64,000 bases of DNA, from contig MHJU01000036.1 in NCBI GenBank assembly GCA_001818155.1, positions 3,615-67,614 on the forward strand, written 5' to 3'. This stretch comes from Candidatus Jacksonbacteria bacterium RIFCSPLOWO2_02_FULL_44_20. GTDB lineage: Bacteria > Patescibacteriota > Patescibacteriia > UBA9629. Below are positions 5,548 through 64,000 of this stretch, one piece after another; position 1 is the first letter of the stretch; each line of letters starts with the position of its first letter. The translations under genes were made by a program, and so were the position numbers. The notes beneath the pieces were generated by a model. The model saw only the letters and a list, made by a program, of their open reading frames with translations. It had not been told where the DNA came from and made no database searches.

Positions 5548-5623
5548 GGGCATATAGCTCAGCGGTTAGAGCACCACTCTTATAAAGTGGGGGTCGATGG
5601 TTCAAATCCATCTATGCCCACCA
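5548..5623 (+). tRNA. tRNA-Ile with a UAU anticodon (tRNA-Ile2-like body)
   Basis: Acceptor gggcata/tatgccc, anticodon stem ccact/agtgg, loop cttataa giving anticodon TAT. GTTAGAGCA in the D-arm and GGTTCAAATCC in the T-arm resemble ileX-type tRNAs. Confidence 0.7.
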
Positions 5624-32597: not shown

Positions 32598-32684
32598 GAA
32601 AACGCCGTCCGCTCCGTCATCTTTATCATCAACTAATCGTCCCTTCTTAAAGAGTTCGCTTTTTGAGCGGGGAAACAACAGTAT

Positions 32685-34295: not shown

Positions 34296-34325
34296 TTTTA
34301 ACAAACTAACTTTAACAGAAGCGCC

Positions 34326-37300: not shown

Positions 37301-37520
37301 AATCTACAAACGAGAGGCAGTTATGGACAATCAAAACGACAACGCCGCAATAACCGTGATGGCGTACGGACTGCGCCAACGAGCGGAAAACAGAAATCTG
37401 ATAAGCGAGGCGCAAGGCATCAAAACCTTCAAACACATCTACGGACACGTGCCACAAACAACTGAAGAGTGGAACCTAATGCAAGGGATTACTTATTCAG
37501 GAGCAACGGCAAAGCAGTAA
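34326..37520 (+). CDS. Large secreted surface protein of 1064 aa with two PKD domains, an IPT domain and a C-terminal coiled-coil region.
   Basis: Signal peptide, then two copies of PPVITGVSGPTSLKVNE.G.W.I.ANDPEGG...HSY...G.Y...FTVTDDKGASAKST, then IPT-like PAITRITPTSGAPGTVLTIYGKNL. A terminator follows. Confidence 0.6.
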   Translation: MTALSKKPMLSHIKKYSAAALMAVAAVALFAYTSVYAQTITDTPTLNVSISPDTPPSQTFLPSTKNVTFATFSFAALNADIRIAKITFTFTGTALTNTSVSNIRLWDETGSTLTTPVSSPIDSNNQVIFYDLRGVISKDTVKKIRLVGDITENPGEGTVMFSINQQSHIIAYKGDTVENPITPSGTFPIKGNVMTIVSDPTTNKPPVITGVSGPTSLKVNETGTWTITANDPEGGALTYTIDWGDSTSFPTPISPPAILNSGQKATFTHSYAQAGTYTVSFTVTDDKGASAKSTITTAVTDELLPDLKPVKLEITNPSRTGNEIWKAGDRLSVAIGIKNIGSAQTPTKVSYTVNLGFVQLESETPTTLKPQEVYESLHTVTLQSDITKTFNATLTADQSYASTGWTPIKETDETNNALAIVLIIGKENTPPVITGVSGPTSLKVNEEGKWIINANDPEGGLFTVTADWQDGSTPEFPTGTSTIAFHHRYTSTGNYSITFTVTDDKGASAKSTVSVNVINIDASNVIVISPTWTDAWQIGYEYNILWTYPKELANKKVNVFVLALPYPSYESQGTIIFQKDGVTAPSPDLAGEVIGNTMWKIPASIKTGQYNVQVQVTAVDTGKFYDDLSDLFSIVQSPTINQPAITRITPTSGAPGTVLTIYGKNLQDDCGKREERVCQLTISLGGYEIKRDRFVEFKVTWAQDRITLVVPPKAQTGAVRIMRVDSEYKDKSYDIMGPVFTVANKIFPGIVCEVKIPENVIIIDSYVDVGQGNSAYWIKNGGTLKTGAGSNKFFIENGGKKFGGGGSHTAYVKKGGSFDGEGGSSNLIYYEEGANITNPGGSSEMKKCGQITFTSSSTITTPPTTTQIRDTARTLHADNIDALLAEIKLLRSQVREQETKIKYLEKLTSGAQEISQKTEEQLNTFIAYGVDENTKRLGTGERAAVLHSFKSAFNKLPESEDELNDAILIANGKWPKARSEEAEARAEKEFKRIYKREAVMDNQNDNAAITVMAYGLRQRAENRNLISEAQGIKTFKHIYGHVPQTTEEWNLMQGITYSGATAKQ
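34930..35890 (+). repeat. Intragenic tandem duplication of a PKD-domain unit: two copies about 670 bp apart.
   Basis: Near-identical stretches at about 34948 and 35615 (cccggtcatcaccggcgtctcgggacc.acttcgct.aaagtaaacgaa) and at about 35165 and 35820 (tttaccgt.accgacgacaa.ggcgcgagcgcgaagtcaac). Confidence 0.6.
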
Positions 37521-47675: not shown

Positions 47676-47823
47676 CAATGTCGCTTAATACAGTATACTG
47701 GATTCCAGTCGTCTACAAAGACGGCTATCTTATTTACTAGTAGAAATAGGTTCTTTGAAAATTGCATATAATCAATACAGCTATCTAAAAGTGATAGTCC
47801 TCAATTTGAAAGTTTTAGTATTT

Positions 47824-49365
<1,542 letters not shown>

Positions 49366-49529
49366 TAAGGAGAAATTCTGTCGACTGTGTTGCTTTGCGA
49401 CACAGGAGGACTATCACTATTAGATGGCTATATTATCAAAATAAAATTCCGTTATGGCGGGATTTTTTGTTTTCACGCAGGGGTTGCGGGGTTCAAGTTT
49501 TTTTGATATTGTCTGTATGCTATTTCGTT

Positions 49530-49605
49530 GCCGACTTAGCTCAGCGGCTAGAGCAACTGTTTTGTAAACAGTAGGTCCGGGGTTCAAATCCCCGAGTCGG
49601 CTCCA
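49530..49605 (+). tRNA. tRNA-Thr(TGT)
   Basis: gccgacttagctcag..., anticodon stem actgt/acagt, loop tttgtaa, encoded CCA. Very similar to E. coli thrU. Confidence 0.8.
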
Positions 49606-49617
49606 GAGGCATAAGAG

Positions 49618-49694
49618 GGGCGCGTAGCTCAGCTGGTTAGAGCACGTCACTGATAATGACGGGGTCGGAAGTTCAAATCTTCCCGCGCCCACCA
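49618..49694 (+). tRNA. tRNA-Ile(GAT)
   Basis: gggcgcgtagctcagctggttagagca, anticodon stem cgtca/tgacg, loop ctgataa, encoded CCA. Confidence 0.85.
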
Positions 49695-50555: not shown

Positions 50556-50633
50556 TTATGTTGTCAGTGCGAATTATTGATGGTAGAATCAGGAGAGAAA
50601 ATAGAAGTAAAAGTTAAGAAGTAATTTGTTTTT

Positions 50634-52817
50634 ATGTCAATGCCAAAAACATTATCATCGCAATCTGTCAAACGTTATATTGTGCACGCCGTGTTTATTA
50701 TCGGCGTTTTATTTTTTCTTGGCGCCGGATGCGGCGAAATAATTTCTGAATTGCCGCCGAAGCCAGTTTCTCCAAGATCTGTTGAACCAGTGAATGCGCG
50801 AGAGACGATTCTAAAAGAACTCCGCGCGCAATCGGAAATCAAGAGATTCGCAAACACTAAAGAACTCCGCGCGTTTCTGGAAGAGCGCGTAGAAGAGCGC
50901 GGCTATGGATATAGACAAATGATGACAGGAGACATTTCTGTCATGAAATCGGATTTTACAGAATCAGCGCCGAGCGCAACGCCATCGCAGGCGGCTACCG
51001 ATTACTCCCGCACGAACATTCAGGTTGAAGGCGTTGACGAGGGCGACATCGTAAAAACAGACGGCGAATATATTTATACAATTAGCGAGAACTCGGTTGT
51101 GATTATGAAAGCATATCCAGCAGATAGCGCCGAAGTTTCATCGCGAATTACATTTGACTCACCTCCGCAAGGGTTTTATATCACCGGCGATCGGCTTATC
51201 GTATACGGCTACGACAATCGCGTGTACGCGGCAGAACAAAAAGTAGGAGCAGGAATTGCGGTTATGCCTGGCCCGATTATTCGCCCCGGTTCAGCATTCG
51301 CCTTTGTCCGTATTTTTGACATCAGCGATCGGCGGAATCCGAAAGAGGCGCGCAATTTCTCATTTGAAGGCAATTATACCAATTCTCGCATGATCGGCGA
51401 TTATCTGTATTTTGTTACAACATCGTATAATAATATATATGGCATTTCTGACGACGAGTCGCCTTTGCCGCTTCTCTTGGAAAGAGGAACTCCGATTTCT
51501 ATGGAAGATGAAAACGCGCCAAACGCGTATTATTTTGATTTTCCATATCAATCGTATCAGTTTACAGCTGTTTCTGCTATTAATGTTATGGATAACTCTG
51601 TATCTATAACGCGCGAGGTATATCTGCTTGACTCCGCGCAGACAATGTATGTGTCGCCGCAAAATTTGTATCTTACTTACACTAAATACTTGAATGAATA
51701 CGATGTGCGCATGGATATCGCGCGGGAATTAGTCGCTCCTCGTTTGAACGACAGAGACAAAGAGAGAATTCAAAAAATTGAAGCCGCGGATTCCGCGGTG
51801 CTCTCCAAAGAGGAAAAACTGCAAAAGATTGACGCGATTATTCAACGATACATCGCGCGGCTTCCTGAGACAGAGCAAAATGCGTTGAACCATGAGATTA
51901 CGAGAGTCGTAAAAGAGACGTATCAAAACATAGCCCGTGAGCTTGAAAAAACAGTTATTCATAAAATCGGGCTCAACGGAAGCGAATTGAAATATCAGAC
52001 ATTCGGCGAAGTTCCGGGCGCGGTGCTCAATCAATTTTCAATGGACGAGAACGGCGGATATTTTAGAATCGCCACAACGAAAAATCGTTCATGGTCTATA
52101 TTTTTGGATGAAAATTCTTTGGAGCGGGACTCTTACAGCAATCTTTATATTCTGGATTCCGGTCTCAAAACAGTCGGCTCAATTGAGGGTTTAGCGAGAG
52201 GAGAGCGAATTTACTCGGCTCGCTTTATGCAGGGGCGCGCGTATCTCGTTACGTTTAAGCAAACCGACCCGCTTTTTGTGATTGACGTCAGTGAACCAAC
52301 AGCCCCGCGCGTATTGGGAGAGTTGAAAATTCCAGGTTTTTCGCAGTACCTTCATCCGTATGACGATACTACGCTCATCGGTTTTGGGCGCGATACAGAA
52401 GCGCGTCCGGATGGCGGTGTTGTTCAGAAAGGATTGAAATTGTCGCTTTTTGATGTGTCCGACGTTTCAGCGCCGAGGGAGATTGATTCGTATCTGTGGC
52501 AGAGTTCGAGAACGTACTCCATTGCGCTTAATGATCATCACGCCTTTCTTTTTTCTCGCGACAAAAATTTGCTAGTTATTCCTTTTGAGGATTATGAAAC
52601 GATTGCCAGACCTGAATTTTCGCGCGGCGCCTTGGTTTTTTCTCTGACAAAAGACGGTTTTTCTTTCAAAGCAAACATTTCTCACGGCAGTGATTACAAT
52701 TCGGCAATCGTTCGCGCGCTTTATATCGGAGACAACCTGTATGCTCTTTCTGGCGCGTATGCTACAATACACGCGCTTGTGGATATACGCGAATTGGAAC
52801 GTATCGGGCTTCAATAA
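50634..52817 (+). CDS. Lipoprotein of 727 aa, probably a secreted beta-propeller-domain protein.
   Basis: Signal peptide with lipobox LFFLGAGC. The C-terminal half (YSARFMQGRAYLVTFKQTDPLFVIDVSEPTAPRVLGELKIPGFSQYLHPYDDTTLIGFGRD) resembles the archaeal/Firmicutes beta-propeller domain family (PF09826-like). Confidence 0.45.
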   Translation: MSMPKTLSSQSVKRYIVHAVFIIGVLFFLGAGCGEIISELPPKPVSPRSVEPVNARETILKELRAQSEIKRFANTKELRAFLEERVEERGYGYRQMMTGDISVMKSDFTESAPSATPSQAATDYSRTNIQVEGVDEGDIVKTDGEYIYTISENSVVIMKAYPADSAEVSSRITFDSPPQGFYITGDRLIVYGYDNRVYAAEQKVGAGIAVMPGPIIRPGSAFAFVRIFDISDRRNPKEARNFSFEGNYTNSRMIGDYLYFVTTSYNNIYGISDDESPLPLLLERGTPISMEDENAPNAYYFDFPYQSYQFTAVSAINVMDNSVSITREVYLLDSAQTMYVSPQNLYLTYTKYLNEYDVRMDIARELVAPRLNDRDKERIQKIEAADSAVLSKEEKLQKIDAIIQRYIARLPETEQNALNHEITRVVKETYQNIARELEKTVIHKIGLNGSELKYQTFGEVPGAVLNQFSMDENGGYFRIATTKNRSWSIFLDENSLERDSYSNLYILDSGLKTVGSIEGLARGERIYSARFMQGRAYLVTFKQTDPLFVIDVSEPTAPRVLGELKIPGFSQYLHPYDDTTLIGFGRDTEARPDGGVVQKGLKLSLFDVSDVSAPREIDSYLWQSSRTYSIALNDHHAFLFSRDKNLLVIPFEDYETIARPEFSRGALVFSLTKDGFSFKANISHGSDYNSAIVRALYIGDNLYALSGAYATIHALVDIRELERIGLQ

Positions 52818-52820
52818 ATT

Positions 52821-53210
52821 TTGAAAATTTTTATGGGAGGGAACACGATAAAAATTCTTCTTGTTGATGATGAAAAGTTTATTTTAAAGATGTATCAGAT
52901 GAAATTGGAGCGAGACGGATATATTGTTTTTACCGCTCAAAACGGGAAAGACGCTGTTTCGCGGGCAAAAGAGGAGCGCCCGGACATTATTTTTCTTGAT
53001 ATCGTGATGGGAAACATGGATGGGTTCGGGGCGTTGAAAGAACTCAAAAAAGATGCGGCCACAAAGGAAGTGCCGGTTTTTATGCTCACAAATATAGTTT
53101 CAGACAGAGATAAAAAAGAGGCGTTGAGCCTTGGCGCGGCTGGATATTATATTAAAACAGACACCGAGCCTTCTGATCTTGCGCGTATAGTGGAAAAATT
53201 CTTAAAATAA
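52821..53210 (+). CDS. Single-domain response regulator (CheY-like receiver)
   Basis: KILLVDDEKFILKMY, a phospho-acceptor D in IIFLDIVMGNMDG, T in FMLT, and K in YYIKT. Confidence 0.75.
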   Translation: MKIFMGGNTIKILLVDDEKFILKMYQMKLERDGYIVFTAQNGKDAVSRAKEERPDIIFLDIVMGNMDGFGALKELKKDAATKEVPVFMLTNIVSDRDKKEALSLGAAGYYIKTDTEPSDLARIVEKFLK

Positions 53211-53231
53211 TTTCTTCGTACTGCCCACAGT

Positions 53232-56200
53232 ATGAAACAGTTTCGCAAAGCCATAGTACTTACTCTTTTGATTGGATTAATTTTCCAACAGTTTTTTTTA
53301 TTGCCTCAAGCGCTTTTAGCGCAAGAATCCCCGGCGCCGGAAATTTCATCTGAACCGGATCAGACGCAACTCACTCCAGCTGAAGCGCAGGAATCGGAGC
53401 AACCAGAGGCTCCTCCTGTAGAAACCGAGCCACAGGTGGAACCAGCGCCGGAATCCGAGCCGACTGTGGAAGTAGCGGAGCCATCGGAACAAAGAGAATC
53501 AACGGAGCAGACAGAGCCGCAAACTGTTCCGGAAGAACAAACAGTTGAGGAGCCTGTTCTACCAGTCGCAGAGGAAGATCAAGTATCTACTGAACCAATC
53601 CCGACAGAACCGGAGCCTCAAATTATTGAGGATCTCTCATCAATCGGAGCAAAAGAAGGACTTGCGGGAGAAAGCGAGCCACAGACAATCACTGTTTTGC
53701 AGGAGGACGAAAATATAACAGTTGTAGGAAAAATAGCCGGGGAAACGGTTGCGCAATCAAACCGCGAAGGTCTTGGTATTTTGAAAGGCGATATTGCCGG
53801 CCGCCCTGAAGAGGTGTTTTTCTTTGAGGAACAGGGTGTAAAAAAACAGGTGGTTGATCTTTCAGAACTTATTAAAAAAGAACAAGCGCCTGCTCCTGAA
53901 ACGCCAAGCGCGGGAGAGATAAGCGACAGCGCCGTTACAAAGGGCGGCGAGGGAATTGTTTTGGAAGAGGTTGTAAAACGCGAAGAGAGCGGGAACGCGG
54001 TTTCCGTGAACGTTGAAGATATTACAGTCGTAAAAAAAGAGGAAGGATTTTTTCAAAAATTGTCTGATACTATTTTTGGCGGTAAAAAAGATAACCCAAA
54101 AGAAGAGCGCGTACAGCTTGAGGTTACAAGCAATGGAGAAGTTAAGCTCATTTCAGCTGAAAATGTTGAGGGCGATGAAAAACTGGAAATTGAGTATTCG
54201 TACGGATCGTACACAAAATCATTTGAAGTTTCGTTTGTTCCGATGACTCTTGACGCGCCCTTTACAGTGTCCGAGTTCAGCGAAGGCGAGCTTGAGAAAG
54301 CCGTCAATCGCGTTTTAGATGTGGAGGCGGAAGCTCCCGAGCCGTTGCAATCGGAAGCGATAGAGCCGCAAACATCCGAACCGCCGGTTGAAACGATTCC
54401 AGTCATAGAACCGATAGAACCGACAGTGTCTGAAATTATTCCAGAGCAATCTCCTGAAACTGTTCCTCTTATTACAGAACCTGTAGAGCCGCCTGTTTCA
54501 GAGCCAACTCCGCCTATAGAAGATGTGATTGAATCACAACCAGCGGTTGCTCCGTCCGAGGAGCCGCATGTAACTTCTGAAACTGTACAGTCCGCGCCTC
54601 CGGAAGATGAGGTGATTGTGCCGGTAGAGCTTCCGGAAGAAGGCGCAGTTCAAGGAGCGCGAGTTCAAAATTTTGATACCGGTGAAGGCACGGGAATCGT
54701 CAACCGCATTAAGCGATTTTTCCAGAGTTTTCTCTTTGGAGCCGCACCGGCACGCGCTCAAAACGGCATGCAAACAGTGCAGACATTTCAGGTAAAACTG
54801 AAAACCGCGACTGTTAAAGGCGAACAAACGTTTCAAATTTTACCAAACGGACTCGTGTATCTCTATCACGGTTCATCTATTGAAGCGATCTCGCGTCCCC
54901 GATTTCAGTATCAGGGAACTAGCGGCTGGAATGATTTTGCAATCACCAACGCCTCGCAAGGAACGCAGACAACTGGCGCTACCGCAACGCATCTTATCCA
55001 ATATACAACGTCCGAAGGAGATATTATCACCTTGAAGTATGATTTCGGACTTCAAAATAATCAGATTTTCAAAAAACAAACATGGACGATTTCCGGCGAC
55101 AAAACCGTGCGCGTTTTATGGGAGACGTTGTTTCGCGCCGGTTCTTTTGCCCAGAAAGAGCTCGCGGTTTCTACCCTAAATGAGAGCGGATCCCGCACAC
55201 GGCTCTACGGCGACATTGTGATTGACACGTCTGACTATAAAGGAAACGTCGCGATTGAAGAGGACAAACCGGCAAATATTGTCCGCGTGTATTTTGAAAA
55301 AGACGGGGCGCAAGCGCCGCTTACGATTGATCCCAGTTTTTCGGTTGTAACAGGAGATCAGTTTATTGAAGTTGTGACGCCGGATTTCCAGTCGCCGGGT
55401 TCAGCGACGGGTTGGAAAATTCGCTTTAATCGCTTAAAAGGCGGCGGCATAGATCAGTATTTTAGCAATTCCCTGAACAATGGGGGAACAAATATCTCTT
55501 CATCAACAAAGCCTATTTTCAACATCGTATATACGAGCAACATTTTCAAAGATCTTTCACAAACGCAAGCGTACAGTATGCAGGTGATTGAGCGTGGCGC
55601 AACTCGTTTGCGGGTGCGGGCGCTCGCAAATCTCGGAAACGATGCGCTCACTATAACATATACAGTTTATTTAGCCGGGCAGATTTTTATAGACATTCAG
55701 AACGTTCTTGAAGACGGCTCTATTGCCGGGCAAAACGGCGTGTTTCAACTCAATCAATCTTATGCGGGGTACCAGCAAGGATACGACATAACCGACGCCG
55801 CGCATAATGCGGTTGCGATAGACTCCATAGAAGCCGACACCGCGCTTGTTCCGTTTGTCGCAAGCGATGTCGCCGGAGTTGCGACCAATGTAAGTGAAGA
55901 AGAAGAGGATTATATTCAGGTTGCGCTCGGCACCGCGATAAACGCGATGTACGCAAACGGAAACACCGCGACGAACCAGTTTCTCTTGTCGCTCACCCCT
56001 CCTTACGAAGGAGGGGCTGGGGGAGGTTTAGCTTTAGCCGCCCTCGCCGCCGACTACCAATCCCCGGACTCCCTTACACCATTCACCATCGGCGCGTATC
56101 AAGGGTATAACAATAAAGAAGGCGCGTATGAGATGACGGCAATAGAAGATAAAATTAAGTTTCAGATGAATGGGGCTGATACGCCGCGTTTTTACCCGAT

Positions 56201-59200
56201 TTTTAAGATTGCCAATTGGCAGAACGCGAACCTCGCCGCTGTGTACGCGGAACTTGACAACGGAGAAATTAAGCAGGATTTGGATTATATTCTCACTTTT
56301 GTAAACGGAGACCCAAACACGCACACGTTAATTTTCCAATATCTTGAGCCCTTAACCGACGCGCGGACGTTTTACATAGACCCGACATGCACGTCAAACG
56401 CGACCGGAAACTGGTCAGCGGCCGGCACATGGCAGAGCTGTGATCCGAATACCACTGACAGTGTAACGATAGCAAGCGGGCATGTTGTAACGATGAATCA
56501 GGACGTAACCGTTGACACTATTTATATCCAGCAGGGAACATTGAAGTTTGATACTACTGCGCGGACGCTTACAGTTAATGAGGACGGGGTAAGCAATACC
56601 GGGTTAATTCAGGTGGGCAATGCGGCCGGAAGTAACGATGCTACTTTTGAGTGCACTGGGCCAACAAGCGGCGTGCATACCATTAAGCTCGTTACTAACG
56701 CCGGCACCAACCCAAGCGTCGGCATAGAAGTTGAAACCGACGGACTTTTGAATATCCAAGGCACATCGTCTGCAAACCAAAACTGCGTTGTTAAAAACGA
56801 CGGCGTAACCACCGACGGCACCAAAAACGGCTACATCTACCTCAAAGACGGCTCCGAGACGCTTATTAAAAACGCGGAGATTTCTTATTTAGGGACAAAC
56901 GCAACTACAAAATACGGAATATCCGCGGTGGACGTTGACGGCAACACGAGCGGAGAAGGTTTGATTATTGAGGGTTCGAACGTTCACAATAACTACATCG
57001 GGCTTGCATTTGAAAGCGGGAGCACATATCTTGCCGCCAACCGCAATGTGTTTCGTTTAAGTTCCGACGACGCTATTAAAAGCCTTGCCACAACAGATGA
57101 TTTTAATATAATCACAAATAACGATATTTACTCAAACACAGGAGATGGAATAGACGTAGCCGGGGATGCTTGGACAATGTATGGAAATGCCGTTAATGGA
57201 AACGTGATCGGGATTGCTGTGTCAGGCGGCCCGAACTATATTTATAATAATACACTTAATGGCAACTCAAACGACGGCATAGCAGTAACTGGCGGAACCG
57301 GCACAGTGATTAAGAATAATCTTATTACGATTAACAGCGCTGAAGGAATTGATAACGACGGCACTTCAACAACAATCTCCACAAATTACTATTACAATAA
57401 TACAACCGCTACCTGCACAACCGCAGGCGCCGCGTGCGGAGACACAACCGCAACAGGCTCCGGCACAATTCCAAACTACGTCTCCACAACTGGCGGGAAT
57501 GCAGATTTTCTCTACGTCTCCTCGGACTCCGCCGCGCTTGGGCCCGGGCTAAACATTTTTGCAGACACAGCGCCAGGCACAGTAAACGTGGGCGGACGGC
57601 TTGATTACGTTAAAAACACAACCGACAACGAAGAGTTTAACTGGCTCCAGCAGGCGCACGACGATTCCTCGCTTGGCGCAGGGGATACGGTTACCGCGTA
57701 TGCGGTGAATGTCGCCTCGGACACCGTCGCGGGAAATATAACAGAAGTCAGCTCCATCGCCTCCACATATTACACAGTAAGATTTGACGTCGCCGAGGCC
57801 ACGGTTGTCGCAGACAACGACCACGAAGGATTTTACGCCTACTTCACTTCCGGCGCAAATCGCGGCAGGTATTACCTCATAACCGACTCCGATGAAAACA
57901 CCACCGACACCCTCACTGTTTTAAGCGAACAAGCCGCAACCACCTTCACCGCCGGCGACGGGTTTACGGTGGTGGATCGGGTGTATGCGAGGGCGGGAGG
58001 GGGCGCAAACTGTACCGGGAATACCGCAAATCTGTGTCTTCTCGCAGACGGCGGAGCGTCTACGCTAATTACCTGGAATACAAATGGCACAGTTATTGTT
58101 GACGCTCAAAATACACGCACATACGGGATATACTTAAACCGTTCTAACCATGTGCGGCTTGATGGATTTATTGTTCAAAATGCTGTTACTCATGGTATTA
58201 GCGGAAATACAGCCACAACCCCTGTACACCTTGCGAATATTGTGGCCGCTTATAACACGAGGGACGGTGTTAGTGTTAGTTGGAATGGGTGGGTGATGAG
58301 CGATACGATAACTTTCAGCAATGGATGGGCGGGCATAGGAAGCGCGGCGGGCGACTTTGACAGTTCGTATGTTATCAACCCAGTGAGTTTTCGTAATTCA
58401 CAAAATGGAATTTCCAACGGACAGGGACCGAATAACACAGTGGTCGGAGCAAAGTTGTTCGGCAATACTTCAAATGGGTGGATTGTTGATAAAAATTCAG
58501 GCGGAACCAGTATAAAGAACTCATTCGTATTCTCAAACCCCAATAACATTAAATTTTCTGATTGGGCGAGCAACACAAACAATAAAGTTGTCAATAATAC
58601 GGTTGTTGGCGGGGCGACTGACGGTATTTTCATTGTCGCCTCAATGCCCGCGGCAGTAATACGGAATAATGTCATTGCGTATAATGCCCAAGATGGGTTG
58701 GATGATGATAGCGGAGCTACTTCGGAGACATACAATTATTTCTATGGCAATGGGGAGAACATAGATGGAGGCGGCGCCATAGGCACTGGGTCTCTTTCCG
58801 TCACCGACCCCGGGTTTTACAGCGAGGTGTCTGCTGTTGTGCTTGCCGCCGGGGCAACCACGACTACGGTTGATGTAACCGGCACGCAGGCGTGGACGGA
58901 AAACCAGTGGGTTGGAGCGGGGCTGACATTCACCGGCGGGAGTTGCAACATCGCGGCAAACACCTGGTTTGGGATTACATCAAATTCCAAAGAGATGCTG
59001 TTTTTCGCTCCAGCCGCATCAGCCGTGCCAAACACAAGTTGTACAGGAGTAATTACAAACTTCTACATCGCAAACACCACCTCCGCGACCACGCCCTTAG
59101 GCCAAGGCGCACGCCACGACGGCGCAACCGAGCCCGGCACCGTAAACATGGGCGCGCGGCTGGGGTATGTATTAAATGACGACCAAGCAAGCGCCGACAT

Positions 59201-62200
59201 CAAGCACAATTGGTTACAAGACGCCCACGACCACGCGAATGTAAACGCCGGAGATACGATCACAACTTACACGGTAAACGAGGTTTCAGACACGCTCGGC
59301 TCAACCCTTACCGACAACGGGCCCTATCTTACTCTTGACGCCGCAACCTCAACAACCATTGCCGCGGCAGACGATTACATCGGCTTTTATATGTACATGA
59401 CCTCTGGAACAAACAGAGGAAAGTATTATCTGATAATTGATTCCACGACAGGTACCCCCGACACAATCTCCATCGCCGCGACCGACGGCACCTCGCTTAA
59501 CACGACCGGCTTCAACCCCGGCGATGGGTTTACGATTGTGGATCGGGTGTATGCGAGGGATTCTGGCGAGTCAACAAACTGTACCGGAACCGAGAATTTA
59601 TGTCTTTCAAAAGCAGGCAACTCAAACGGCACTGCGCCTATTACATGGACTACTTCTGGCGCTGTGGTTATTGATTCTGCCGGAGTGCGAAGTTACAGCA
59701 TAGATATTGCCGGCGCGGACTACAATATAGTAAACGGTTTTACGGTTATCGGCGGACTTTTAGACGGCATTCGGCTTACGAATGTAAACAACAGCAGGTA
59801 TGCTAATTTAACCGTTGCGAGAAATACTGGAATGGGCATTAACGACGGCGCGGGCAATCAAGATAATTTATTTGAAACAAACACGGTATTTTCAAACACA
59901 AGCCATGGAATAGGCGGTATCAATCAATCTTTTGTAAACGGCAATACGGTGTACGGAAACTCTGGACGGGGGATTGATGTAAGTGGGACGAGCGCGGTGT
60001 ATAATAATAATCTTTACGCAAACGCGGATAGCGTATTTATGGCCGGCGCGGACAACACGATTCGCGGAAATAAGATTTTGCGAGACACGCAAAGCGGAAT
60101 AGTTTTTTCAGGGAGCGCAACATCAAGCGCTATTACGAATAACCTTTTGCTTGCTAATACCACAAACGGAATTGCCGCAAGTTCGTATTCCGGAAGCAAT
60201 AATGCTATTCGCAATAATATCATCACCAATACCGGTACGGGCATCAATCTATCCCTTCACGCGACCGATGTTTCTAATTTTAATTATTTTTACAGTAATA
60301 CAACGAATGTTGTCGGCGGTGAAGGGGCGCAATCACTTCCCGCAAGCGGCGGGGCTGGAGGAACTGATCCGAATTATAGTTTTGATGTTTCCGCGACAAA
60401 TGTTACCGCGGGGTCAACCGGTGAGATAGATTTAACAGGCACTCAAAACTGGACTGCCAATCAATGGGCAGGGTATGGTTTAACTTTTATTGACGGCACG
60501 AGCGTGTGCGATTCAGATGTCAAAAATAAATGGTTTGGCATTACCGCAAACGGAGCCGAATGGATTGCGTACTCGCCAACGCCTGCTGATGCTTCCACCA
60601 TTACTAATTGCGCGGCAAAGATTACTAATTTTGCGCTTCCTTCCGTCTCTACCACCACGCCTTTGGGGGGCGGGGCAAACCATGCGGGCACAGCGGCGAA
60701 AGTGAATATGGGGACGCGGCTTGAGTATGTTGAGAACAGCGACGGCACGCGAAATAACGGAATTCAAAACGCCAATGACGCGGGCGCGACAGGCGCGGGA
60801 GACACCTTAACCGTGTACGCGGTTGACGAAGTAACAAGCGGCACGGTTTTTTCCGCCGCGGACAGCGGGCCTTATGTTACCCTTACGCTCTCAACAGACA
60901 GCATCGCCGCAAACGATGACTATATCGGCATGTATATGTATATGACGAGCGGCACAAATGCGAGCAAGTACTATCTGATCATTGATTCGGCAACAGTTGC
61001 AGGACCAGCCGACACAATCGCAATTAACACTTCTGCAACTACCGGCTTTGCCGCAAGCGATACGTTTAATATAATAGACCGCGTGTACAGCACAACCGGC
61101 TATACGTCTGGCGCCACAACAGCAAACGCGCGTTTCACCAAAGACGGCTCATCTGGAAGCCCAATCACATGGAATGCGGTTGCAAGTAACACAGTTTTGA
61201 TAGACGCATCAGGGAAGACATACGGTTTTTACGGCGATACAGACGGTACAAACGGGCTAAAATATAACAATTTTCAGACCGCCGGCACATTCACTTTCTT
61301 AAACGTCTCAAACGGCGCGAACCTGTATCAAGGCGGATTTGGGTTTAATACCACGAGCGTTGTTCACGATCACATTAACTGGGGAGGCGCAACTGACGCA
61401 AGCACTATTTTTACAGGCCAGTATATTTCAAAAATAATTGATATGACGCAGGCGGATCCGGTGTATGGAAATTTGGTGTGGACGCAGAACGCAACAGCCG
61501 GCACGAGCGACGTTGTTATGCATACAAGAAGTACGGACACCGCAAACGGAAGCGACATCGGCACAAAAACGTTTGTAGGTCCTGACGGAACCGCAAACAC
61601 TTCGTATTCCACCGAAACCGGCGAGGCCATCGCGGATGCGCATAACACGCATCAATATTTCCAGTATCGCGCCACACTCACCACAACCTCAAGCAATACG
61701 CTTCCGGAACTCACCTCGACAAGCGTGAGCCAGGAAGCAGAATTAACATCCTCTCCTTTTAACACGCAGGCCGCGGAAACATTGTTTAACGATGTTGTCT
61801 GGACAGAATCCGACGGCGCAAGCGGCACCATTCCATCCGGCACAGACGTTCGCATTCAGGTTCGTAGCGCGCCGGATTCAAGCGGGGCCCCTGGCACATG
61901 GACATCGTGGTGCGGGCCAAACGACGGAGTCTCGGGAAGCTGTACTTCAACAACTTACTTTACGGACTCAACCGGCGCGACCGAGGCACTTGACGATATT
62001 TTGATTGACGCGACAAGCGATCAGTGGATTCAGTATAAAATTTTATTTATCCAGCCCTCAACAAATAAGCCATATTTGAATGATATTACCTTGCAATACG
62101 TTGTAAACACCGCTCCAACGGTCAGTGTTACGTCCGCCTCGCAAGGATCGGACGGCGTCGTAACGGTTGCGTATTCGCTTTCTGACTCGGAAGAGCAGGG

Positions 62201-64000
62201 AGAGGACGGAGCCGTTGTTGCGGGGCTGTACTATGAACGCGCTGTTACAATCGCAGAGGATTTGGATATTTCGGAAACCGATATTGATGTATCAAGCGCA
62301 TCAACGCTTCCCGCAAGCGGGACGATTTTGGTTGACAATGAAATTATTTCTTACACCGGAAAGAGCGGAAATACGCTCACAGGCGGCACACGCGCCGCAG
62401 AGTCGTCAAAGGCGGCTGTCCACTCAAACGGAGCGAACGTGTGGGTGAAGGCGGTAACGGTTTCTGGAAACGTTGGCACAATTACCGGCGTTAACGGAAC
62501 TCCTTCAGCGAAAAGTGTGACATGGACCGCGAATACCGATATAGACGGCGTGTACGATGCGACGTTTTCAATCCGCGTTGCCGGAAACGACGGAAACGCG
62601 GCAAATCAAGTTGGATACGCAACGTCCTCTGATTTCGTGCTGGATACAAAGGATCCGATTGTTGATACGTTCACGGTTGACGCAAGCGCAAATTCCGGCT
62701 CAACTGATGTTACCGCAACGCTTACCATTACAAAAACCGATGATTCAACCGCGACTATGAGCATTGCAAATGATTCAGGGTCAGTCGGGACAACGTACAG
62801 CGCCTTTGCGTCTCCGACCACCTGGTCGCTTGACACAATAACAAGTACGCAAAAAACAGTGTATCTTAAACTCAAAGACGCGAAAGGCAATACATCTACG
62901 ACCGCAAGCGCGAAAACTCCGGTAACGCCCACTAGTTTGAGTGTTGTTGATACCTCAAACGTCGGCACCGGCGACTATCGTCTGTTCCTCTCGTGGAAAA
63001 AAGCCGAAGCGACTGACGTTCCGGCGTTTTCTTCATACAAAGTGTACCGCAAAACCGGAAGCGGCGGCGCTTATTCCGGCTCCGGCGTTTTTACGCTTGT
63101 GTCAACAATCAGCGCTATTAACACAAACTACTTTATCAATACAAACATTGACGGGACCAATCCGATTACGCAAGATACGCAATACGATTATTTTGTGATA
63201 ACGCAATCCACTGACGGAAACATTTCATACAGGTCAGGCGGCATCTGCGGTATACCAAACGGAGCGGCCGATTGCGCTGAAGGAGGCGGAGGCGACGACA
63301 CAACAGCTCCGACTATCATATTTACAGAAACGAGCGGAGAAGGAACGCCATCTAATTCGCGCGTTACAATTACCTTCCAGACTTATGATTTGCCCGCGGC
63401 GCCAGGCACAATTCGCGACGCGAAAATTGATTACGGCACATCAAGCGGCGTGTTTACGCTTTCGCAGGGCATCCCGACAGCAACCAGCGGCACAAGCGCG
63501 TCCGCCCCGGCAACGCGCGCCGTTACTCTTGAAGGGCTCTCCGGAAGCACGACGTATTATTACCGTATCAACGCGCGAGACGCCGCGGGAAATATCGGAA
63601 CAGACGACAACAGCGGAGCCGGCTATACGTTTACAACAACAAACGAGCCCGGATCAATCATTTCAAATGTGCAGTCAATTCTTATTAATTCCACAACGAT
63701 TAAAATTACATGGACAACAGACAAAGTCGCAAGTTCGCAGGTTGTATACGCGACAAACTCCGGGCTTACCGGATCAACTAGTTTTCCGGTTTCCCCGAGC
63801 GATTCAGACACCAATCATGAAGTGCAGATTACTGGCTTGACGGCCGGGACAACGTATTATTATAAAGCGAGGTCGGTTGACGCAAACAACAACACCAGCG
63901 ACAGCGCGGTGTACAGTTTCACAACAGCGGACACGGCGGCGCCTGCAATATCTCAAGTTGCCGCAACAAACGTTACCCACAGTTCCGCGACCATTACCTT
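53232..64000 (+). CDS. Giant secreted/surface protein, partial: at least 3,589 aa with no stop before the window end. Signal peptide, then an E/P-rich disordered spacer, then a parallel beta-helix (PbH1/NosD-like) repeat region, then Ig/FN3-like C-terminal domains.
   Basis: I read frame 0 (codon starts divisible by 3) continuously from the ATG at 53232 to 64000 with no stop, which agrees with the ORF track showing no frame-0 breaks. N-terminus MKQFRKAIVLTLLIGLIFQQFFLLPQALLAQ. EPxPE-rich low-complexity to about 54700. Repeated NxxIxxNxxxGI beta-helix turns, for example NNDIYSNTGDGIDVAGDAWTMYGNAVNGNVIGIAVSGG. FN3-like C-terminal units (GLSGSTTYYYRINARDAAGN; ITGLTAGTTYYYKARSVDANNN). Confidence 0.7.
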   Translation, partial: MKQFRKAIVLTLLIGLIFQQFFLLPQALLAQESPAPEISSEPDQTQLTPAEAQESEQPEAPPVETEPQVEPAPESEPTVEVAEPSEQRESTEQTEPQTVPEEQTVEEPVLPVAEEDQVSTEPIPTEPEPQIIEDLSSIGAKEGLAGESEPQTITVLQEDENITVVGKIAGETVAQSNREGLGILKGDIAGRPEEVFFFEEQGVKKQVVDLSELIKKEQAPAPETPSAGEISDSAVTKGGEGIVLEEVVKREESGNAVSVNVEDITVVKKEEGFFQKLSDTIFGGKKDNPKEERVQLEVTSNGEVKLISAENVEGDEKLEIEYSYGSYTKSFEVSFVPMTLDAPFTVSEFSEGELEKAVNRVLDVEAEAPEPLQSEAIEPQTSEPPVETIPVIEPIEPTVSEIIPEQSPETVPLITEPVEPPVSEPTPPIEDVIESQPAVAPSEEPHVTSETVQSAPPEDEVIVPVELPEEGAVQGARVQNFDTGEGTGIVNRIKRFFQSFLFGAAPARAQNGMQTVQTFQVKLKTATVKGEQTFQILPNGLVYLYHGSSIEAISRPRFQYQGTSGWNDFAITNASQGTQTTGATATHLIQYTTSEGDIITLKYDFGLQNNQIFKKQTWTISGDKTVRVLWETLFRAGSFAQKELAVSTLNESGSRTRLYGDIVIDTSDYKGNVAIEEDKPANIVRVYFEKDGAQAPLTIDPSFSVVTGDQFIEVVTPDFQSPGSATGWKIRFNRLKGGGIDQYFSNSLNNGGTNISSSTKPIFNIVYTSNIFKDLSQTQAYSMQVIERGATRLRVRALANLGNDALTITYTVYLAGQIFIDIQNVLEDGSIAGQNGVFQLNQSYAGYQQGYDITDAAHNAVAIDSIEADTALVPFVASDVAGVATNVSEEEEDYIQVALGTAINAMYANGNTATNQFLLSLTPPYEGGAGGGLALAALAADYQSPDSLTPFTIGAYQGYNNKEGAYEMTAIEDKIKFQMNGADTPRFYPIFKIANWQNANLAAVYAELDNGEIKQDLDYILTFVNGDPNTHTLIFQYLEPLTDARTFYIDPTCTSNATGNWSAAGTWQSCDPNTTDSVTIASGHVVTMNQDVTVDTIYIQQGTLKFDTTARTLTVNEDGVSNTGLIQVGNAAGSNDATFECTGPTSGVHTIKLVTNAGTNPSVGIEVETDGLLNIQGTSSANQNCVVKNDGVTTDGTKNGYIYLKDGSETLIKNAEISYLGTNATTKYGISAVDVDGNTSGEGLIIEGSNVHNNYIGLAFESGSTYLAANRNVFRLSSDDAIKSLATTDDFNIITNNDIYSNTGDGIDVAGDAWTMYGNAVNGNVIGIAVSGGPNYIYNNTLNGNSNDGIAVTGGTGTVIKNNLITINSAEGIDNDGTSTTISTNYYYNNTTATCTTAGAACGDTTATGSGTIPNYVSTTGGNADFLYVSSDSAALGPGLNIFADTAPGTVNVGGRLDYVKNTTDNEEFNWLQQAHDDSSLGAGDTVTAYAVNVASDTVAGNITEVSSIASTYYTVRFDVAEATVVADNDHEGFYAYFTSGANRGRYYLITDSDENTTDTLTVLSEQAATTFTAGDGFTVVDRVYARAGGGANCTGNTANLCLLADGGASTLITWNTNGTVIVDAQNTRTYGIYLNRSNHVRLDGFIVQNAVTHGISGNTATTPVHLANIVAAYNTRDGVSVSWNGWVMSDTITFSNGWAGIGSAAGDFDSSYVINPVSFRNSQNGISNGQGPNNTVVGAKLFGNTSNGWIVDKNSGGTSIKNSFVFSNPNNIKFSDWASNTNNKVVNNTVVGGATDGIFIVASMPAAVIRNNVIAYNAQDGLDDDSGATSETYNYFYGNGENIDGGGAIGTGSLSVTDPGFYSEVSAVVLAAGATTTTVDVTGTQAWTENQWVGAGLTFTGGSCNIAANTWFGITSNSKEMLFFAPAASAVPNTSCTGVITNFYIANTTSATTPLGQGARHDGATEPGTVNMGARLGYVLNDDQASADIKHNWLQDAHDHANVNAGDTITTYTVNEVSDTLGSTLTDNGPYLTLDAATSTTIAAADDYIGFYMYMTSGTNRGKYYLIIDSTTGTPDTISIAATDGTSLNTTGFNPGDGFTIVDRVYARDSGESTNCTGTENLCLSKAGNSNGTAPITWTTSGAVVIDSAGVRSYSIDIAGADYNIVNGFTVIGGLLDGIRLTNVNNSRYANLTVARNTGMGINDGAGNQDNLFETNTVFSNTSHGIGGINQSFVNGNTVYGNSGRGIDVSGTSAVYNNNLYANADSVFMAGADNTIRGNKILRDTQSGIVFSGSATSSAITNNLLLANTTNGIAASSYSGSNNAIRNNIITNTGTGINLSLHATDVSNFNYFYSNTTNVVGGEGAQSLPASGGAGGTDPNYSFDVSATNVTAGSTGEIDLTGTQNWTANQWAGYGLTFIDGTSVCDSDVKNKWFGITANGAEWIAYSPTPADASTITNCAAKITNFALPSVSTTTPLGGGANHAGTAAKVNMGTRLEYVENSDGTRNNGIQNANDAGATGAGDTLTVYAVDEVTSGTVFSAADSGPYVTLTLSTDSIAANDDYIGMYMYMTSGTNASKYYLIIDSATVAGPADTIAINTSATTGFAASDTFNIIDRVYSTTGYTSGATTANARFTKDGSSGSPITWNAVASNTVLIDASGKTYGFYGDTDGTNGLKYNNFQTAGTFTFLNVSNGANLYQGGFGFNTTSVVHDHINWGGATDASTIFTGQYISKIIDMTQADPVYGNLVWTQNATAGTSDVVMHTRSTDTANGSDIGTKTFVGPDGTANTSYSTETGEAIADAHNTHQYFQYRATLTTTSSNTLPELTSTSVSQEAELTSSPFNTQAAETLFNDVVWTESDGASGTIPSGTDVRIQVRSAPDSSGAPGTWTSWCGPNDGVSGSCTSTTYFTDSTGATEALDDILIDATSDQWIQYKILFIQPSTNKPYLNDITLQYVVNTAPTVSVTSASQGSDGVVTVAYSLSDSEEQGEDGAVVAGLYYERAVTIAEDLDISETDIDVSSASTLPASGTILVDNEIISYTGKSGNTLTGGTRAAESSKAAVHSNGANVWVKAVTVSGNVGTITGVNGTPSAKSVTWTANTDIDGVYDATFSIRVAGNDGNAANQVGYATSSDFVLDTKDPIVDTFTVDASANSGSTDVTATLTITKTDDSTATMSIANDSGSVGTTYSAFASPTTWSLDTITSTQKTVYLKLKDAKGNTSTTASAKTPVTPTSLSVVDTSNVGTGDYRLFLSWKKAEATDVPAFSSYKVYRKTGSGGAYSGSGVFTLVSTISAINTNYFINTNIDGTNPITQDTQYDYFVITQSTDGNISYRSGGICGIPNGAADCAEGGGGDDTTAPTIIFTETSGEGTPSNSRVTITFQTYDLPAAPGTIRDAKIDYGTSSGVFTLSQGIPTATSGTSASAPATRAVTLEGLSGSTTYYYRINARDAAGNIGTDDNSGAGYTFTTTNEPGSIISNVQSILINSTTIKITWTTDKVASSQVVYATNSGLTGSTSFPVSPSDSDTNHEVQITGLTAGTTYYYKARSVDANNNTSDSAVYSFTTADTAAPAISQVAATNVTHSSATIT
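57560..61250 (+). repeat. Three in-frame tandem copies of a module of about 1.55 kb (about 520 aa) inside the giant ORF.
   Basis: Recurring blocks at about 57570, 59130 and 60700 (TAPGTVNVGGRLDYV, TEPGTVNMGARLGYV, AAKVNMGTRLEYV) and at about 57820, 59380 and 60930 (GFYAYFTSGANRGRYYLITDS, GFYMYMTSGTNRGKYYLIIDS, GMYMYMTSGTNASKYYLIIDS, each followed by DGFT.VDRVYAR). Confidence 0.55.

Follow-up and report, generated by a model that had tools for sequence, protein, structure and literature searches.

A 4,428-residue predicted surface protein with a G8/beta-helix cassette, encoded at the front of a putative surface-protein gene cluster of Candidatus Jacksonbacteria

The DNA analysed here, a stretch of 64,000 nt from the ultra-small groundwater bacterium Candidatus Jacksonbacteria (Parcubacteria, CPR) that is called the window in what follows and from whose start all positions are counted, ends inside a very large gene. 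Three co-oriented genes occupy its last part, all on the forward (+) strand, as is every other feature of this region given below: a gene for a predicted lipoprotein of 727 aa (50634..52817), a gene for a single-domain CheY-like receiver (52833..53210), and the first 10,769 nt (3,589 codons) of the giant gene (53232..64000). The genes are tightly spaced, with 3 nt between the lipoprotein and receiver ORFs and 21 nt between the receiver and the giant gene. Between a tRNA-Phe gene and the lipoprotein gene, a TG-extended promoter-like sequence, TTGTCA-17-TAGAAT (50561..50589), is a candidate operon promoter on the basis of its match to the consensus at 10 of 12 positions. The region is best explained as the beginning of a cluster of co-directional surface-protein genes.

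The product of the first gene is plausibly a lipoprotein with a beta-propeller, as had been proposed from the sequence. Residues 124-714 match the Pfam family PF09826 (Beta_propel) over profile positions 1-491 of 495 (503.2 bits vs a cut-off of 22.4, E 1e-150), and the signal sequence ends in the lipobox-like FFLGAG/C33 (here and below, the slash marks the predicted cleavage point), judged against the PROSITE PS51257 rule. The enzyme Lgt is encoded within the window (7114-7878, 227 bits). No sequence match to this protein was found in PDB or NCBIfam, and an identical lipoprotein is encoded on 14 contigs.

The receiver could start either at TTG 52821 (129 aa) or at ATG 52833 (125 aa). The latter is the more likely start, and the 125-aa form is the one called in seven other assemblies. 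The protein matches Response_reg (PF00072, 84.3 bits vs a cut-off of 30.2) and has all five canonical receiver residues (D12, D13, D56, T86 and K108), but it has no output domain, and 125 aa leave no room for one. Histidine-kinase domains (HisKA/HATPase_c) were found neither in the lipoprotein, the giant protein and the 40 other window ORFs scanned, a set that takes in every long ORF of the window not likely to be the mere shadow of an annotated gene, nor in the 12 kb downstream. The description of this gene as a single-domain CheY-like receiver, with no kinase domain in the window ORFs scanned, is supported.

The frame of the giant gene is uninterrupted from ATG 53232 to the window edge, as the sequence-only reading had stated: translation revealed no stop in 3,589 codons, while the longest ORF in the other frames of the same stretch is 161 aa. 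At 47-50% G+C, a stop-free run of this length would arise by chance with a probability of approximately (61/64)^3589, or about e^-172. The gene ends beyond the window, as expected, and its end was located in sister assemblies of the same population, reached together with the downstream genes by way of the ABC ATPase gene downstream of an orthologue (contig L002). The stop codon lies 2,518 nt past the window edge, so that the complete gene measures 13,287 nt (about 13.3 kb) and encodes an acidic protein of 4,428 aa (467 kDa, pI 4.3) with a high content of T, S, N and G. The product is of 4,429 aa in those sister assemblies that have one extra GAG codon, an in-frame indel at position 53570 that is the only length variant among the gap-free assemblies.

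It should be noted that the same gene is split in one public record, DOWP01000028.1 (GCA_003519505.1), where it is called as two proteins of 848 and 3,551 aa, and that the contig of the orthologue in L002 shows an apparent frameshift close to its start. These two observations are what could be said for regarding the long frame as an assembly artefact, as several genes or as a pseudogene. However, the public split, which is the only one, falls at an 'NN' scaffold gap, with gap junctions at aa ~471 and ~829-833, and the window sequence fills this gap in frame. The gene is free of stops and frameshifts in at least seven gap-free assemblies, which come from different samples: its first 9,585 nt are intact in two of them (L021 and L022), its last 9,339 nt in five (L009, L010, L012, L013 and L017), and a single 4,429-aa product is called in L009, L010, L013, L021 and L022. 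Collapse of repeats during assembly is equally contradicted by the data, in that no near-identical DNA repeats able to collapse are present in the gene (the longest is 55 nt at 87% identity), and protein-level identity among the internal super-repeats is just 38-49%. Comparison with a 79%-identical orthologue over 2,152 codons gave a dN/dS of 0.175, a value that marks purifying selection. On account of the open frame, the intact independent assemblies, the position of the split at a gap, the dN/dS value and the lack of long DNA repeats, the giant gene is one real, intact ORF, and an artefact is effectively refuted. The public record also illustrates how draft genomes can lose giant genes. Gene conversion among the super-repeats was tested as the source of a variant patch seen in L017, and was rejected.

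The giant protein begins with an export signal (aa 1-30, 53232..53321), composed of MKQFRK, a 24-residue hydrophobic core and LLA/QE. In a Kyte-Doolittle scan of the full-length protein this is the sole hydrophobic segment (aa 6-30). The orthologue P0002 has an analogous SFA/QSE, in which the A-x-A-like site is conserved. The signal peptide previously read from the sequence is supported as an N-terminal export signal, which might be cleaved off as a signal peptide or retained as a signal anchor. What follows had been taken for a single E/P-rich, low-complexity spacer of about 450 aa, which proved to be correct in part. Two E/P-rich tracts are indeed present, tract 1 at aa 31-135 (53322..53636, 46% E+P), which contains the GAG indel and is a probable extended spacer, and tract 2 at aa 366-480 (54327..54671, 42% E+P). 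The 230 residues between them (aa 136-365, 53637..54326), instead, contain 20% E+P, are not of low complexity, and share 56% and 39% identity with their two homologues, P0001 and P0002, respectively; they gave no match in Pfam or to any known family.

The next region, aa 481-1060 (54672..56411), is a lineage-specific domain predicted to be mostly beta. A search of 5.8 billion clusters returned only two homologues, a metagenome scan added nothing beyond a contig already known, and no match was found in Pfam, NCBIfam or PDB. The AlphaFold2 (AF2) model of this domain has a mean pLDDT of 45, and its weak fold matches to galactose-mutarotase-like supersandwiches are, given the low confidence of the model, a hint at most.

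The central part of the protein is a cassette of 1,640 aa (aa 1061-2700, 56412..61331). It consists, in this order, of a G8 domain (aa 1066-1145, 56427-56666; PF10162, 31.4 bits vs a cut-off of 22.9), a first beta-helix, and three super-repeats of about 517 aa with 38-49% pairwise identity. Beta-helix families score above their cut-offs, both over the whole protein and segment by segment: Beta_helix (PF13229) with 57.3 bits vs 25.9 in four stretches, and NosD (PF05048) with 26.7 bits vs 23.6. A PbH1-type regular expression, which served only to bound the helix region, gave 28 matches, mostly in aa 1100-2500. The earlier figure of about 2,400 aa of beta-helix repeats was thus an overestimate, considering that beta-helix sequence is limited to aa ~1061-2700 and that only about 200-330 aa of each module are helix. 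The domains that Pfam found in the giant protein are Beta_helix, NosD, G8 and, further on, Pur_ac_phosph_N/fn3, which bears out the beta-helix and FN3 types read from the sequence.

The best-conserved part of each super-repeat is a cap/insert domain of about 170 aa, present as copy A (aa 1463-1640, 57618..58151), copy B (aa 1986-2164, 59187..59723) and copy C (aa 2502-2681, 60735..61274), the last of which is followed only by a truncated helix. This domain falls outside every Pfam family, and its 30 copies are distributed over a small group of very large proteins; it is an undescribed domain. A resemblance to the Yersinia pH 6 antigen (E about 0.02 over 42 aa), with 4 of 24 copies scoring below the Pfam cut-off, is retained as a lead only.

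Structure prediction, suggested earlier for one module, was informative for super-repeat C, whose right-handed parallel beta-helix core (aa 2154-2364, 59691..60323) is modelled as a three-strand solenoid with regular E-E-E coils and a pLDDT of 70-88. This is the only confidently modelled part of the protein: the AF2 models were built on alignments of 3-5 sequences and have mean pLDDT values of 51 and 45, and only the beta-helix core was used; the other helices of the cassette are deduced from repeat homology only. The top Foldseek matches of the core, all with marginal E-values (1e-3 to 1e-1), are right-handed beta-helix proteins active on carbohydrates, namely the epimerases AlgG and AlgE, the Klebsiella K1 capsule lyase, GH28 polygalacturonases, GH87 enzymes and phage tailspike depolymerases; the list also includes NosD and, as match number 39, the SRRP adhesin of L. 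reuteri (PDB 5nxk). In the repeat alignment (A2), the only invariant positions of the helix core are N224, G228 and N284, the other invariant residues being clustered in the cap/insert domain, and no conserved acidic or His-containing motif is present in the core. Pfam and NCBIfam revealed no CAZyme, lyase or catalytic family in the giant protein. The beta-helix fold class is compatible with binding and catalysis alike.

Relatives of the cassette are rare. An exhaustive HMMER scan of libraries of billions yielded 56 representatives, and in four of them (P0125, P0127, P0131 and P0137) the cassette is collinear at 29-35% identity. The carriers are other very large proteins of 2,000-6,355 aa, several of which are named Omnitrophota or Jacksonbacteria by NCBI; P0129, P0132 and P0134, relatives of the cassette of about 1,700 aa, are among those named Omnitrophota. 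In P0127, a Pfam Polysacc_lyase domain (aa 2466-2628) directly precedes the shared cassette, and P0125 adjoins an F-type ATPase/type IV pilus locus resembling those that have been put forward for Omnitrophota as signatures of symbiosis. The presence of the cassette in Omnitrophota proteins hints at a joint toolkit of ultra-small, host-dependent bacteria.

The C-terminal part opens with an unnamed T/S/G-rich region (aa 2701-3367, 61332..63332), which shares 38-43% identity with two other proteins of Parcubacteria and gave no match in Pfam or PDB; a 49-aa motif within it (aa 3007-3055) is shared with a phage baseplate-wedge family (PHROG 708, E 7e-6). From position 63333 to the window edge the gene encodes the start of an array of FN3-like units of the Pur_ac_phosph_N type (aa 3368-3470, aa 3478-3566 and part of aa 3574-3662). 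Pfam scores were 57.9 vs 30 for PF16656 (Pur_ac_phosph_N) and 26.2 vs 25 for PF00041 (fn3), and an iterated local profile detected ten units of about 90 aa with E-values from 1e-24 to 1e-32, in agreement with the FN3/Ig-like C-terminal domains originally described. About 2.3 of the units are encoded inside the window and seven further ones beyond it, the array being divided into seven and three by an E/K-rich linker (aa 4067-4127). The C-terminus of the completed protein reads ...SEFQDAFGFLKR; it shows no sorting signal of the kind to be looked for by extending the contig, as the full-length protein contains no LPXTG-like motif, no C-terminal transmembrane segment and no hydrophobic window outside aa 6-30. 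PDB sequence and profile searches with every segment of the protein gave nothing significant, and about 60% of it (aa 31-1060, the cap/insert domains and aa 2701-3367) has no family match and no reliable AF2 model.

Beyond the window, the giant gene is followed by genes for a membrane protein of 212 aa, a MacB-type ABC transporter, another membrane protein (151 aa) and one more single-domain receiver, paralogous to the upstream one (39% identical). All are co-directional and are separated by 3-19 nt or overlap; scans for terminators and promoters downstream found no sites above chance expectation. A MacB-type pair is also found 3' of a 39%-identical homologue in L003. Upstream conservation could be evaluated in L006, the only other orthologue with upstream sequence, beside which neither the lipoprotein nor the receiver is present.

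This difference in gene neighbourhood, together with the lack of a DNA-binding output, weakens the earlier suggestion that the receiver hints at regulated expression. Control of giant-gene expression by the upstream receiver would be in keeping with the 21 nt that separate the two genes, with the paralogous receiver that closes the cluster, and with the OmpR-type regulator and the GGDEF protein that flank the relative P0125. It is nevertheless an unlikely arrangement, considering that this receiver has no output domain of any kind, that none of the 40 other window ORFs encodes a kinase domain, and that single-domain receivers (CheY, DivK, PilH-type) normally act on proteins and not on promoters. 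If linked to the fibre at all, the receiver would act through protein-protein contacts, being unable to bind DNA alone.

Among CPR bacteria, the recognition and holding of partner cells is known mainly from Saccharibacteria and Absconditabacteria. The domain order of the giant protein suggests how it might work. The protein would be exported by the Sec pathway through its N-terminal signal and would remain associated with the cell through this signal, if uncleaved, or through its N-terminal domains, with the two E/P-rich tracts acting as extended spacers through the wall or an S-layer. The working end would be the 1,640-aa cassette, with the G8 domain as a cap and three super-repeats, each pairing a cap/insert domain of about 170 aa with a CASH/PbH1-type right-handed parallel beta-helix. 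This fold class is used by proteins that bind or process carbohydrates, and the cassette is proposed to recognize a polysaccharide, which could belong to a surface or to the envelope of a partner cell. Roughly 1,700 residues at the C-terminus would make up an elongated rod of Ig/FN3-like domains, the ten FN3-like units among them. The combination of export signal, spacers, glycan-type cassette and Ig/FN3 rod therefore makes it most likely, although by no means certain, that the giant protein is a glycan-targeting surface fibre or adhesin, with a length of the order of 100 nm, which attaches an ultra-small, metabolically dependent cell to its host or partner. As no cell-wall anchor is recognizable, cleavage of the signal could set the protein free instead of leaving it displayed.

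Alternatively, the protein might be chiefly an enzyme, in which one or more of the beta-helix modules are depolymerases, lyases or epimerases acting on the capsule or wall of the host, or on the cell's own envelope, and the Ig/FN3 domains are only a tether. That the best fold matches of the core are enzymes is in favour of this idea, as are the lyase domain preceding the cassette in P0127 and the resemblance, weak as it is, of the N-terminal domain to the supersandwich domains that are accessory to glycoside hydrolases; moreover, giant proteins of Omnitrophota have been proposed to degrade the surface polysaccharide of prey (bioRxiv 10.1101/2023.11.21.568195; PMC10066038). However, the E-values of those matches are marginal, no CAZyme or lyase family scores in the protein, the helix core has just three invariant positions and lacks a conserved acidic or His motif, and an hhalign comparison of the N-terminal domain with the P0127 lyase domain showed no similarity save a shared G8-start motif. 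We regard a mainly enzymatic role as possible, but rather unlikely. A purely structural role, as a coat or an S-layer-associated part of the cell's own envelope with no partner recognition, appears improbable. Secretion, acidity, a T/S/N/G-rich composition and repeated beta modules are features that it has in common with many envelope proteins, and the adjoining lipoprotein and MacB-type transporter genes point to envelope functions. On the other hand, relatives should have retained a core component of the envelope, and the extreme rarity of both the N-terminal domain and the cassette argues against such a role; in addition, lattice-forming S-layer proteins are typically not as large as 467 kDa.

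Attachment to a partner cell, which the sequence-only reading had also put forward, is thus the function that we favour for the giant protein, and by analogy it agrees with what has been proposed for large surface proteins of CPR bacteria and Omnitrophota (PMC8080830; PMC10066038). Giant surface proteins are already known from such bacteria, and the present one adds a further member. As a gene that is complete, intact in many assemblies and under purifying selection, it is a well-supported full-length candidate for partner-cell attachment, and it offers three parts that can be expressed and tested, i.e. the rare N-terminal domain, the repeated beta-helix module and the undescribed domain of about 170 aa. 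A more far-reaching scenario, which we consider speculative and quite unlikely, is that the eight co-directional genes, spanning about 20 kb, form one regulated fibre system in which host contact leads the MacB-type mechanotransmission pump, together with both phospho-receivers, to deploy the fibre or to switch it, and that the G8/beta-helix cassette (about 1,700 aa) with its cap/insert domain is a mobile host-targeting module exchanged between unrelated CPR Jacksonbacteria and Omnitrophota, ultra-small episymbionts or predators.

Among known systems, the closest in general terms are the giant proteins of Vampirococcus lugosii, whose ten longest proteins (1,392-4,163 aa) carry PKD, fibronectin and similar domains and were proposed to mediate host attachment (PMC8080830). 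The two cases have in common a CPR bacterium with a reduced genome, an exported protein of several thousand residues, adhesion-type domains (fibronectin-type, with PKD in Vampirococcus) and a proposed role in host recognition or attachment. However, V. lugosii belongs to Absconditabacteria, and the G8/beta-helix cassette is absent from its set of WD40, PKD, saposin, DUF11 and integrin domains, compared here by description. Adhesins have likewise been proposed as the products of giant ORFs in Omnitrophota and of comparable, smaller ORFs in Patescibacteria (PMC10066038). The likeness to the Omnitrophota giants lies in the ultra-small, host-dependent bacteria that produce them, in the largely unannotated sequence, in the attachment- and carbohydrate-related domains, and in the occurrence of the cassette in smaller Omnitrophota proteins. 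The Omnitrophota giants are defined by a size of more than 20 kb or 30,000 aa, and have many transmembrane helices and often a divergent SecA-like DEAD helicase domain (PMC10066038; bioRxiv 10.1101/2023.11.21.568195), whereas the present protein, with 4,428 aa, a single hydrophobic segment and no Pfam helicase match, falls outside that definition.

As for the cassette, its above-cut-off Beta_helix and NosD scores and its modelled three-strand coils relate it best to CASH/PbH1 proteins (AlgG, AlgE4/AlgE6, capsule lyases, GH28 enzymes, tailspikes and NosD). It differs from the enzymes of this group in its low identity to them (9-16%), in that no catalytic motif was identified, and in its tandem helices, each preceded by the conserved domain of about 170 aa that is absent there. 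The SRRP of L. reuteri (PDB 5nxk) and adhesin-like proteins of gut methanogens (PMC11532034) provide examples of a pectate-lyase-like beta-helix used for binding and combined with Ig-like repeats on the cell surface. Unlike the giant protein, which has neither an LPXTG motif nor serine-rich repeats, SRRPs are LPXTG-anchored, glycosylated, serine-rich and exported by aSec. Finally, CEMIP/TMEM2-type proteins with G8 and PbH1 repeats are eukaryotic hyaluronan-processing proteins, and the giant protein resembles them, in a comparison of domain order alone, in having G8 directly before the PbH1-type repeats.

Translation of the window gave 3,589 codons without a single stop from the ATG at 53232 to the right edge at 64000, as the sequence-only reading had described, and no ORF in the remaining frames of this stretch exceeded 161 aa. 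The end of the gene was reached through the ABC ATPase encoded downstream of a 79%-identical orthologue (contig L002, CAYYGX010000027.1), whose near-identical homologue P0003 led to ten more assemblies of the same population; a look-up of the lipoprotein added eight further places. In these assemblies, which derive from groundwater metagenomes, the stop codon lies 2,518 nt beyond the window edge, giving a full length of 4,428 aa for the window allele. One product of 4,429 aa is called in L009, L010, L013, L021 and L022; the final 9,339 nt contain neither stops nor Ns in L009, L010, L012, L013 and L017, and both L021 and L022 carry the initial 9,585 nt without interruption. The assemblies differ from the window across the gene by a few SNPs and by a single in-frame GAG (Glu) codon of the first E/P-rich tract, missing at window 53570 and present in all six other assemblies compared there; no other genuine variant in length was seen. 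The dN/dS ratio against the L002 orthologue is 0.175 (2,152 codons). Neither an in-frame stop nor the frameshifts or collapsed repeats that might have undermined the frame were found; the longest DNA repeat within the gene measures only 55 nt at 87% identity, so that repeat collapse is of no concern. The giant gene is therefore intact and under selection.

An exact look-up of the upstream receiver retrieved the NCBI contig DOWP01000028.1 (GCA_003519505.1), about 99.8% identical to the window by alignment, where the giant frame is called as two products of 848 and 3,551 aa. This contig contains 'NN' scaffold gaps, three of them inside the giant gene: at 11826 (window 54643-54647), 12897 (window 55717-55731) and 19096 (window 61929-62005), where NN stands for 5, 15 and 77 nt, respectively. 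Once filled from the window, all three leave the frame open. Because the break between the two products coincides exactly with the second gap, which the window fills in frame, the existence of two separate genes was rejected and the split is an artefact of the draft record. Draft scaffolds can thus hide giant genes.

Homologues and identical neighbours carry the names 'Parcubacteria group bacterium GW2011_GWC2_44_17' and 'Candidatus Jacksonbacteria bacterium', a lineage within the Patescibacteria/Parcubacteria group. Positions 1-14210 of L002, labelled 'uncultured Gammaproteobacteria', hold an orthologue that shares 73-79% identity with the giant gene and is followed by the same order of genes, and this is probably a mis-binned Jacksonbacteria-like contig; an apparent frameshift was noted near its position 211. 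Assembly L017 shows a divergent haplotype patch against window 60633-60739 (about 20 SNPs in 107 nt, mostly synonymous), where nine other assemblies carry the window's version. The patch was not copied from elsewhere in the giant gene, and recombination with a related strain may be its origin.

The domain annotation of the whole protein, with aa 3590-4428 read from L009 outside the window, places it in the Beta_helix/NosD, G8 and FN3-like domain families (Pfam matches to Beta_helix, 57.3 bits, NosD, G8 and Pur_ac_phosph_N/fn3). The N-terminal export signal (aa 1-30: MKQFRK, a 24-residue hydrophobic core and LLA/QE) is the only hydrophobic segment of the protein, and the orthologue P0002 has an analogous SFA/QSE at its signal end. 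The spacer previously put at 450 aa holds up only as two E/P-rich tracts, aa 31-135 (46% E+P) and aa 366-480 (42%), as between them lies a conserved segment (aa 136-365, 20% E+P) that shares 56% and 39% identity with its two homologues. The conserved domain that follows (aa 481-1060) has no family assignment, with no match in Pfam, NCBIfam or PDB. Only two homologues were found in 5.8 billion clusters, both from Parcubacteria/Jacksonbacteria, and a metagenome scan gave no further one; these N-terminal parts are rare. The AF2 model of this domain (mean pLDDT 45) gave weak fold matches to galactose-mutarotase-like supersandwich domains of glycosidases, a possible likeness to be taken as a hint only.

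The beta-helix cassette spans aa 1061-2700 and consists of a G8 domain (1066-1145), a first helix and three super-repeats of about 517 aa with 38-49% mutual identity. Each comprises a cap/insert domain of about 170 aa, a right-handed beta-helix core and a small C-terminal segment; with the core only one of these three parts, the earlier figure of 2,400 aa of beta-helix was an overestimate. Modelling by AF2 was confident only for the helix core (aa 2154-2364, pLDDT 70-88). The cap/insert domain, the most conserved part of the super-repeat, occurs in 30 copies across the small set of proteins related through the cassette and has no Pfam family match; some likeness to the Yersinia pH 6 antigen stays below threshold and may serve only as a lead. 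The T/S/G-rich region at aa 2701-3367 matches no family and has counterparts of 38-43% identity in two other proteins from Parcubacteria. Within it, a 49-residue motif (aa 3007-3055, window 62250-62396; …GTILVDNEIISYTGKSGNTLTGGTRAAESSKAAVHSNGANVW…) matches the phage baseplate wedge subunit PHROG 708 (E 7e-6) and is kept in the homologues of L002, L003 and L004. The FN3 domains expected at the C-terminal end were confirmed as ten FN3-like units (aa 3368-4405), seven and three on either side of an E/K-rich linker. The full-length protein ends in ...FGFLKR, with neither an LPXTG signal nor a C-terminal transmembrane segment.

When one super-repeat was used for an exhaustive HMMER scan of 1.84 billion representatives, 56 matches were obtained at E <= 1e-3, ten of them at E <= 1e-30; several of the 56 are very large (6,355, 5,627, 4,813 and 3,343 aa). 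Those held by NCBI are named 'right-handed parallel beta-helix repeat-containing protein' or 'hypothetical protein' and belong to Jacksonbacteria and Candidatus Omnitrophota. The whole cassette (aa ~1050-2700) is collinear with four of these relatives (P0125, P0127, P0131 and P0137) at 29-35% identity. In the 6,355-aa P0125 it is present twice. Within the surroundings of this gene (L028 849-33808), an OmpR-type regulator and a DUF2341 protein are encoded to one side; to the other lie genes for a GGDEF protein, an F-type ATPase operon, and the ATPase and platform genes of a type IV pilus. This setting resembles the Omnitrophota 'symbiosis' loci (PMC10066038).

The protein thus combines an export signal, a glycan-type beta-helix cassette and a long Ig/FN3 array with no C-terminal anchor. 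We consider it somewhat probable that it is a glycan-targeting surface fibre or adhesin. It would be exported by Sec and retained at the cell surface through its N-terminus, the E/P tracts would act as spacers and the FN3 array as a rod, and the helix modules would bind, or act on, the polysaccharide of a partner cell. The main alternative, that the helices are depolymerases, draws on the Foldseek matches of the modelled helix core to PDB, the top ones all being beta-helix carbohydrate-active proteins (AlgG, AlgE4/6, K1 capsule lyase, GH28, GH87, tailspikes; E-values 1e-3 to 1e-1) and largely enzymes, with the SRRP adhesin and NosD ranking 39 and 44, and on the Polysacc_lyase domain (Pfam) directly ahead of the cassette in P0127. 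However, the giant protein itself has no catalytic family match and no conserved groove motif, and we regard this alternative as rather unlikely. A role as an envelope coat seems more improbable still.

Overall, the sequence-only observation is borne out, and its interpretation in part. Read as a surface fibre or adhesin, the giant gene is a testable candidate for CPR-host attachment. Large exported proteins have been proposed as host-attachment structures in CPR, the ten longest of Vampirococcus measuring 1,392-4,163 aa (PMC8080830); Omnitrophota are documented to have giant ORFs, and smaller ones of like character have been noted in Patescibacteria and Nanohaloarchaeota (PMC10066038; bioRxiv 10.1101/2023.11.21.568195). 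Large proteins of this kind are therefore already known in CPR, and the finding, while solid, would not surprise a specialist. The protein lacks the defining features of the Omnitrophota class of >30,000 aa, is not an LPXTG adhesin and is not recognisable as a CAZyme. Several details are locally new: the N-terminal domain, which is rare; the cap/insert domain, so far undescribed; a cassette that Omnitrophota share; and a MacB transporter and receivers encoded on the flanks.

Both ORFs described upstream were recovered in the same places. The predicted lipoprotein with a beta-propeller has a lipobox-like LGAG/C33 and a full-length PF09826 Beta_propel match (503 bits), and Lgt is encoded in the window (7114-7878). 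The CheY-like receiver (Response_reg, 84 bits; D12, D13, D56, T86 and K108 present) has no output domain, and no histidine-kinase domain was found in the 40 other window ORFs scanned, in agreement with its description as an orphan. Lacking a DNA-binding domain, the receiver is unlikely to exert transcriptional control in the way that its presence had been taken to hint at. A candidate promoter-like site rated good (50561-50589) follows tRNA-Phe, and the lipoprotein, receiver and giant genes are separated by 3 and 21 nt. Downstream of the giant gene, right past the window edge (L009 9343-13413), genes separated by 3-19 nt or overlapping encode a membrane protein of 212 aa, a MacB-type pair of ABC ATPase (465 aa, of which about 230 form a C-terminal extension) and permease, a membrane protein of 151 aa and another single-domain receiver that shares 39% identity with the first. 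A pair of the MacB type is likewise found after the L003 homologue, which is 39% identical, but not after that in L004; in L006, the only other N-terminal orthologue with context, neither lipoprotein nor receiver lies upstream. An operon of the giant gene and its neighbours is plausible.

After a complete 16S rRNA gene (47823-49364, 1,415 bits) come tRNA-Thr(UGU) and tRNA-Ile(GAU), and then a protein-coding SDR gene and tRNA-Phe in place of a 23S gene, so that the rRNA genes appear unlinked; of the N gaps in the public UBA record, the majority lie in the stretch 47823-49694. At 5548-5623, adjoining tRNA-Val(GAC), ARAGORN called a tRNA-Ile with anticodon UAU. In bacteria AUA is usually decoded by a lysidine-modified CAU tRNA, and the call, if true, would imply a different decoding route. 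A second surface-protein cluster (30605-37520) opens with an ECF-type sigma factor (30605-31111). Immediately behind it, three ORFs run in one direction (498, 536 and 1,064 aa), and PKD/Big_9 domains occur in two of these. Finally, a 212-aa ORF on the reverse strand (8109-8747) matches PF01864, the family of CarS-like CDP-archaeol synthases (101.6 bits), an archaeal-lipid-type family, here inside a bacterial genome.
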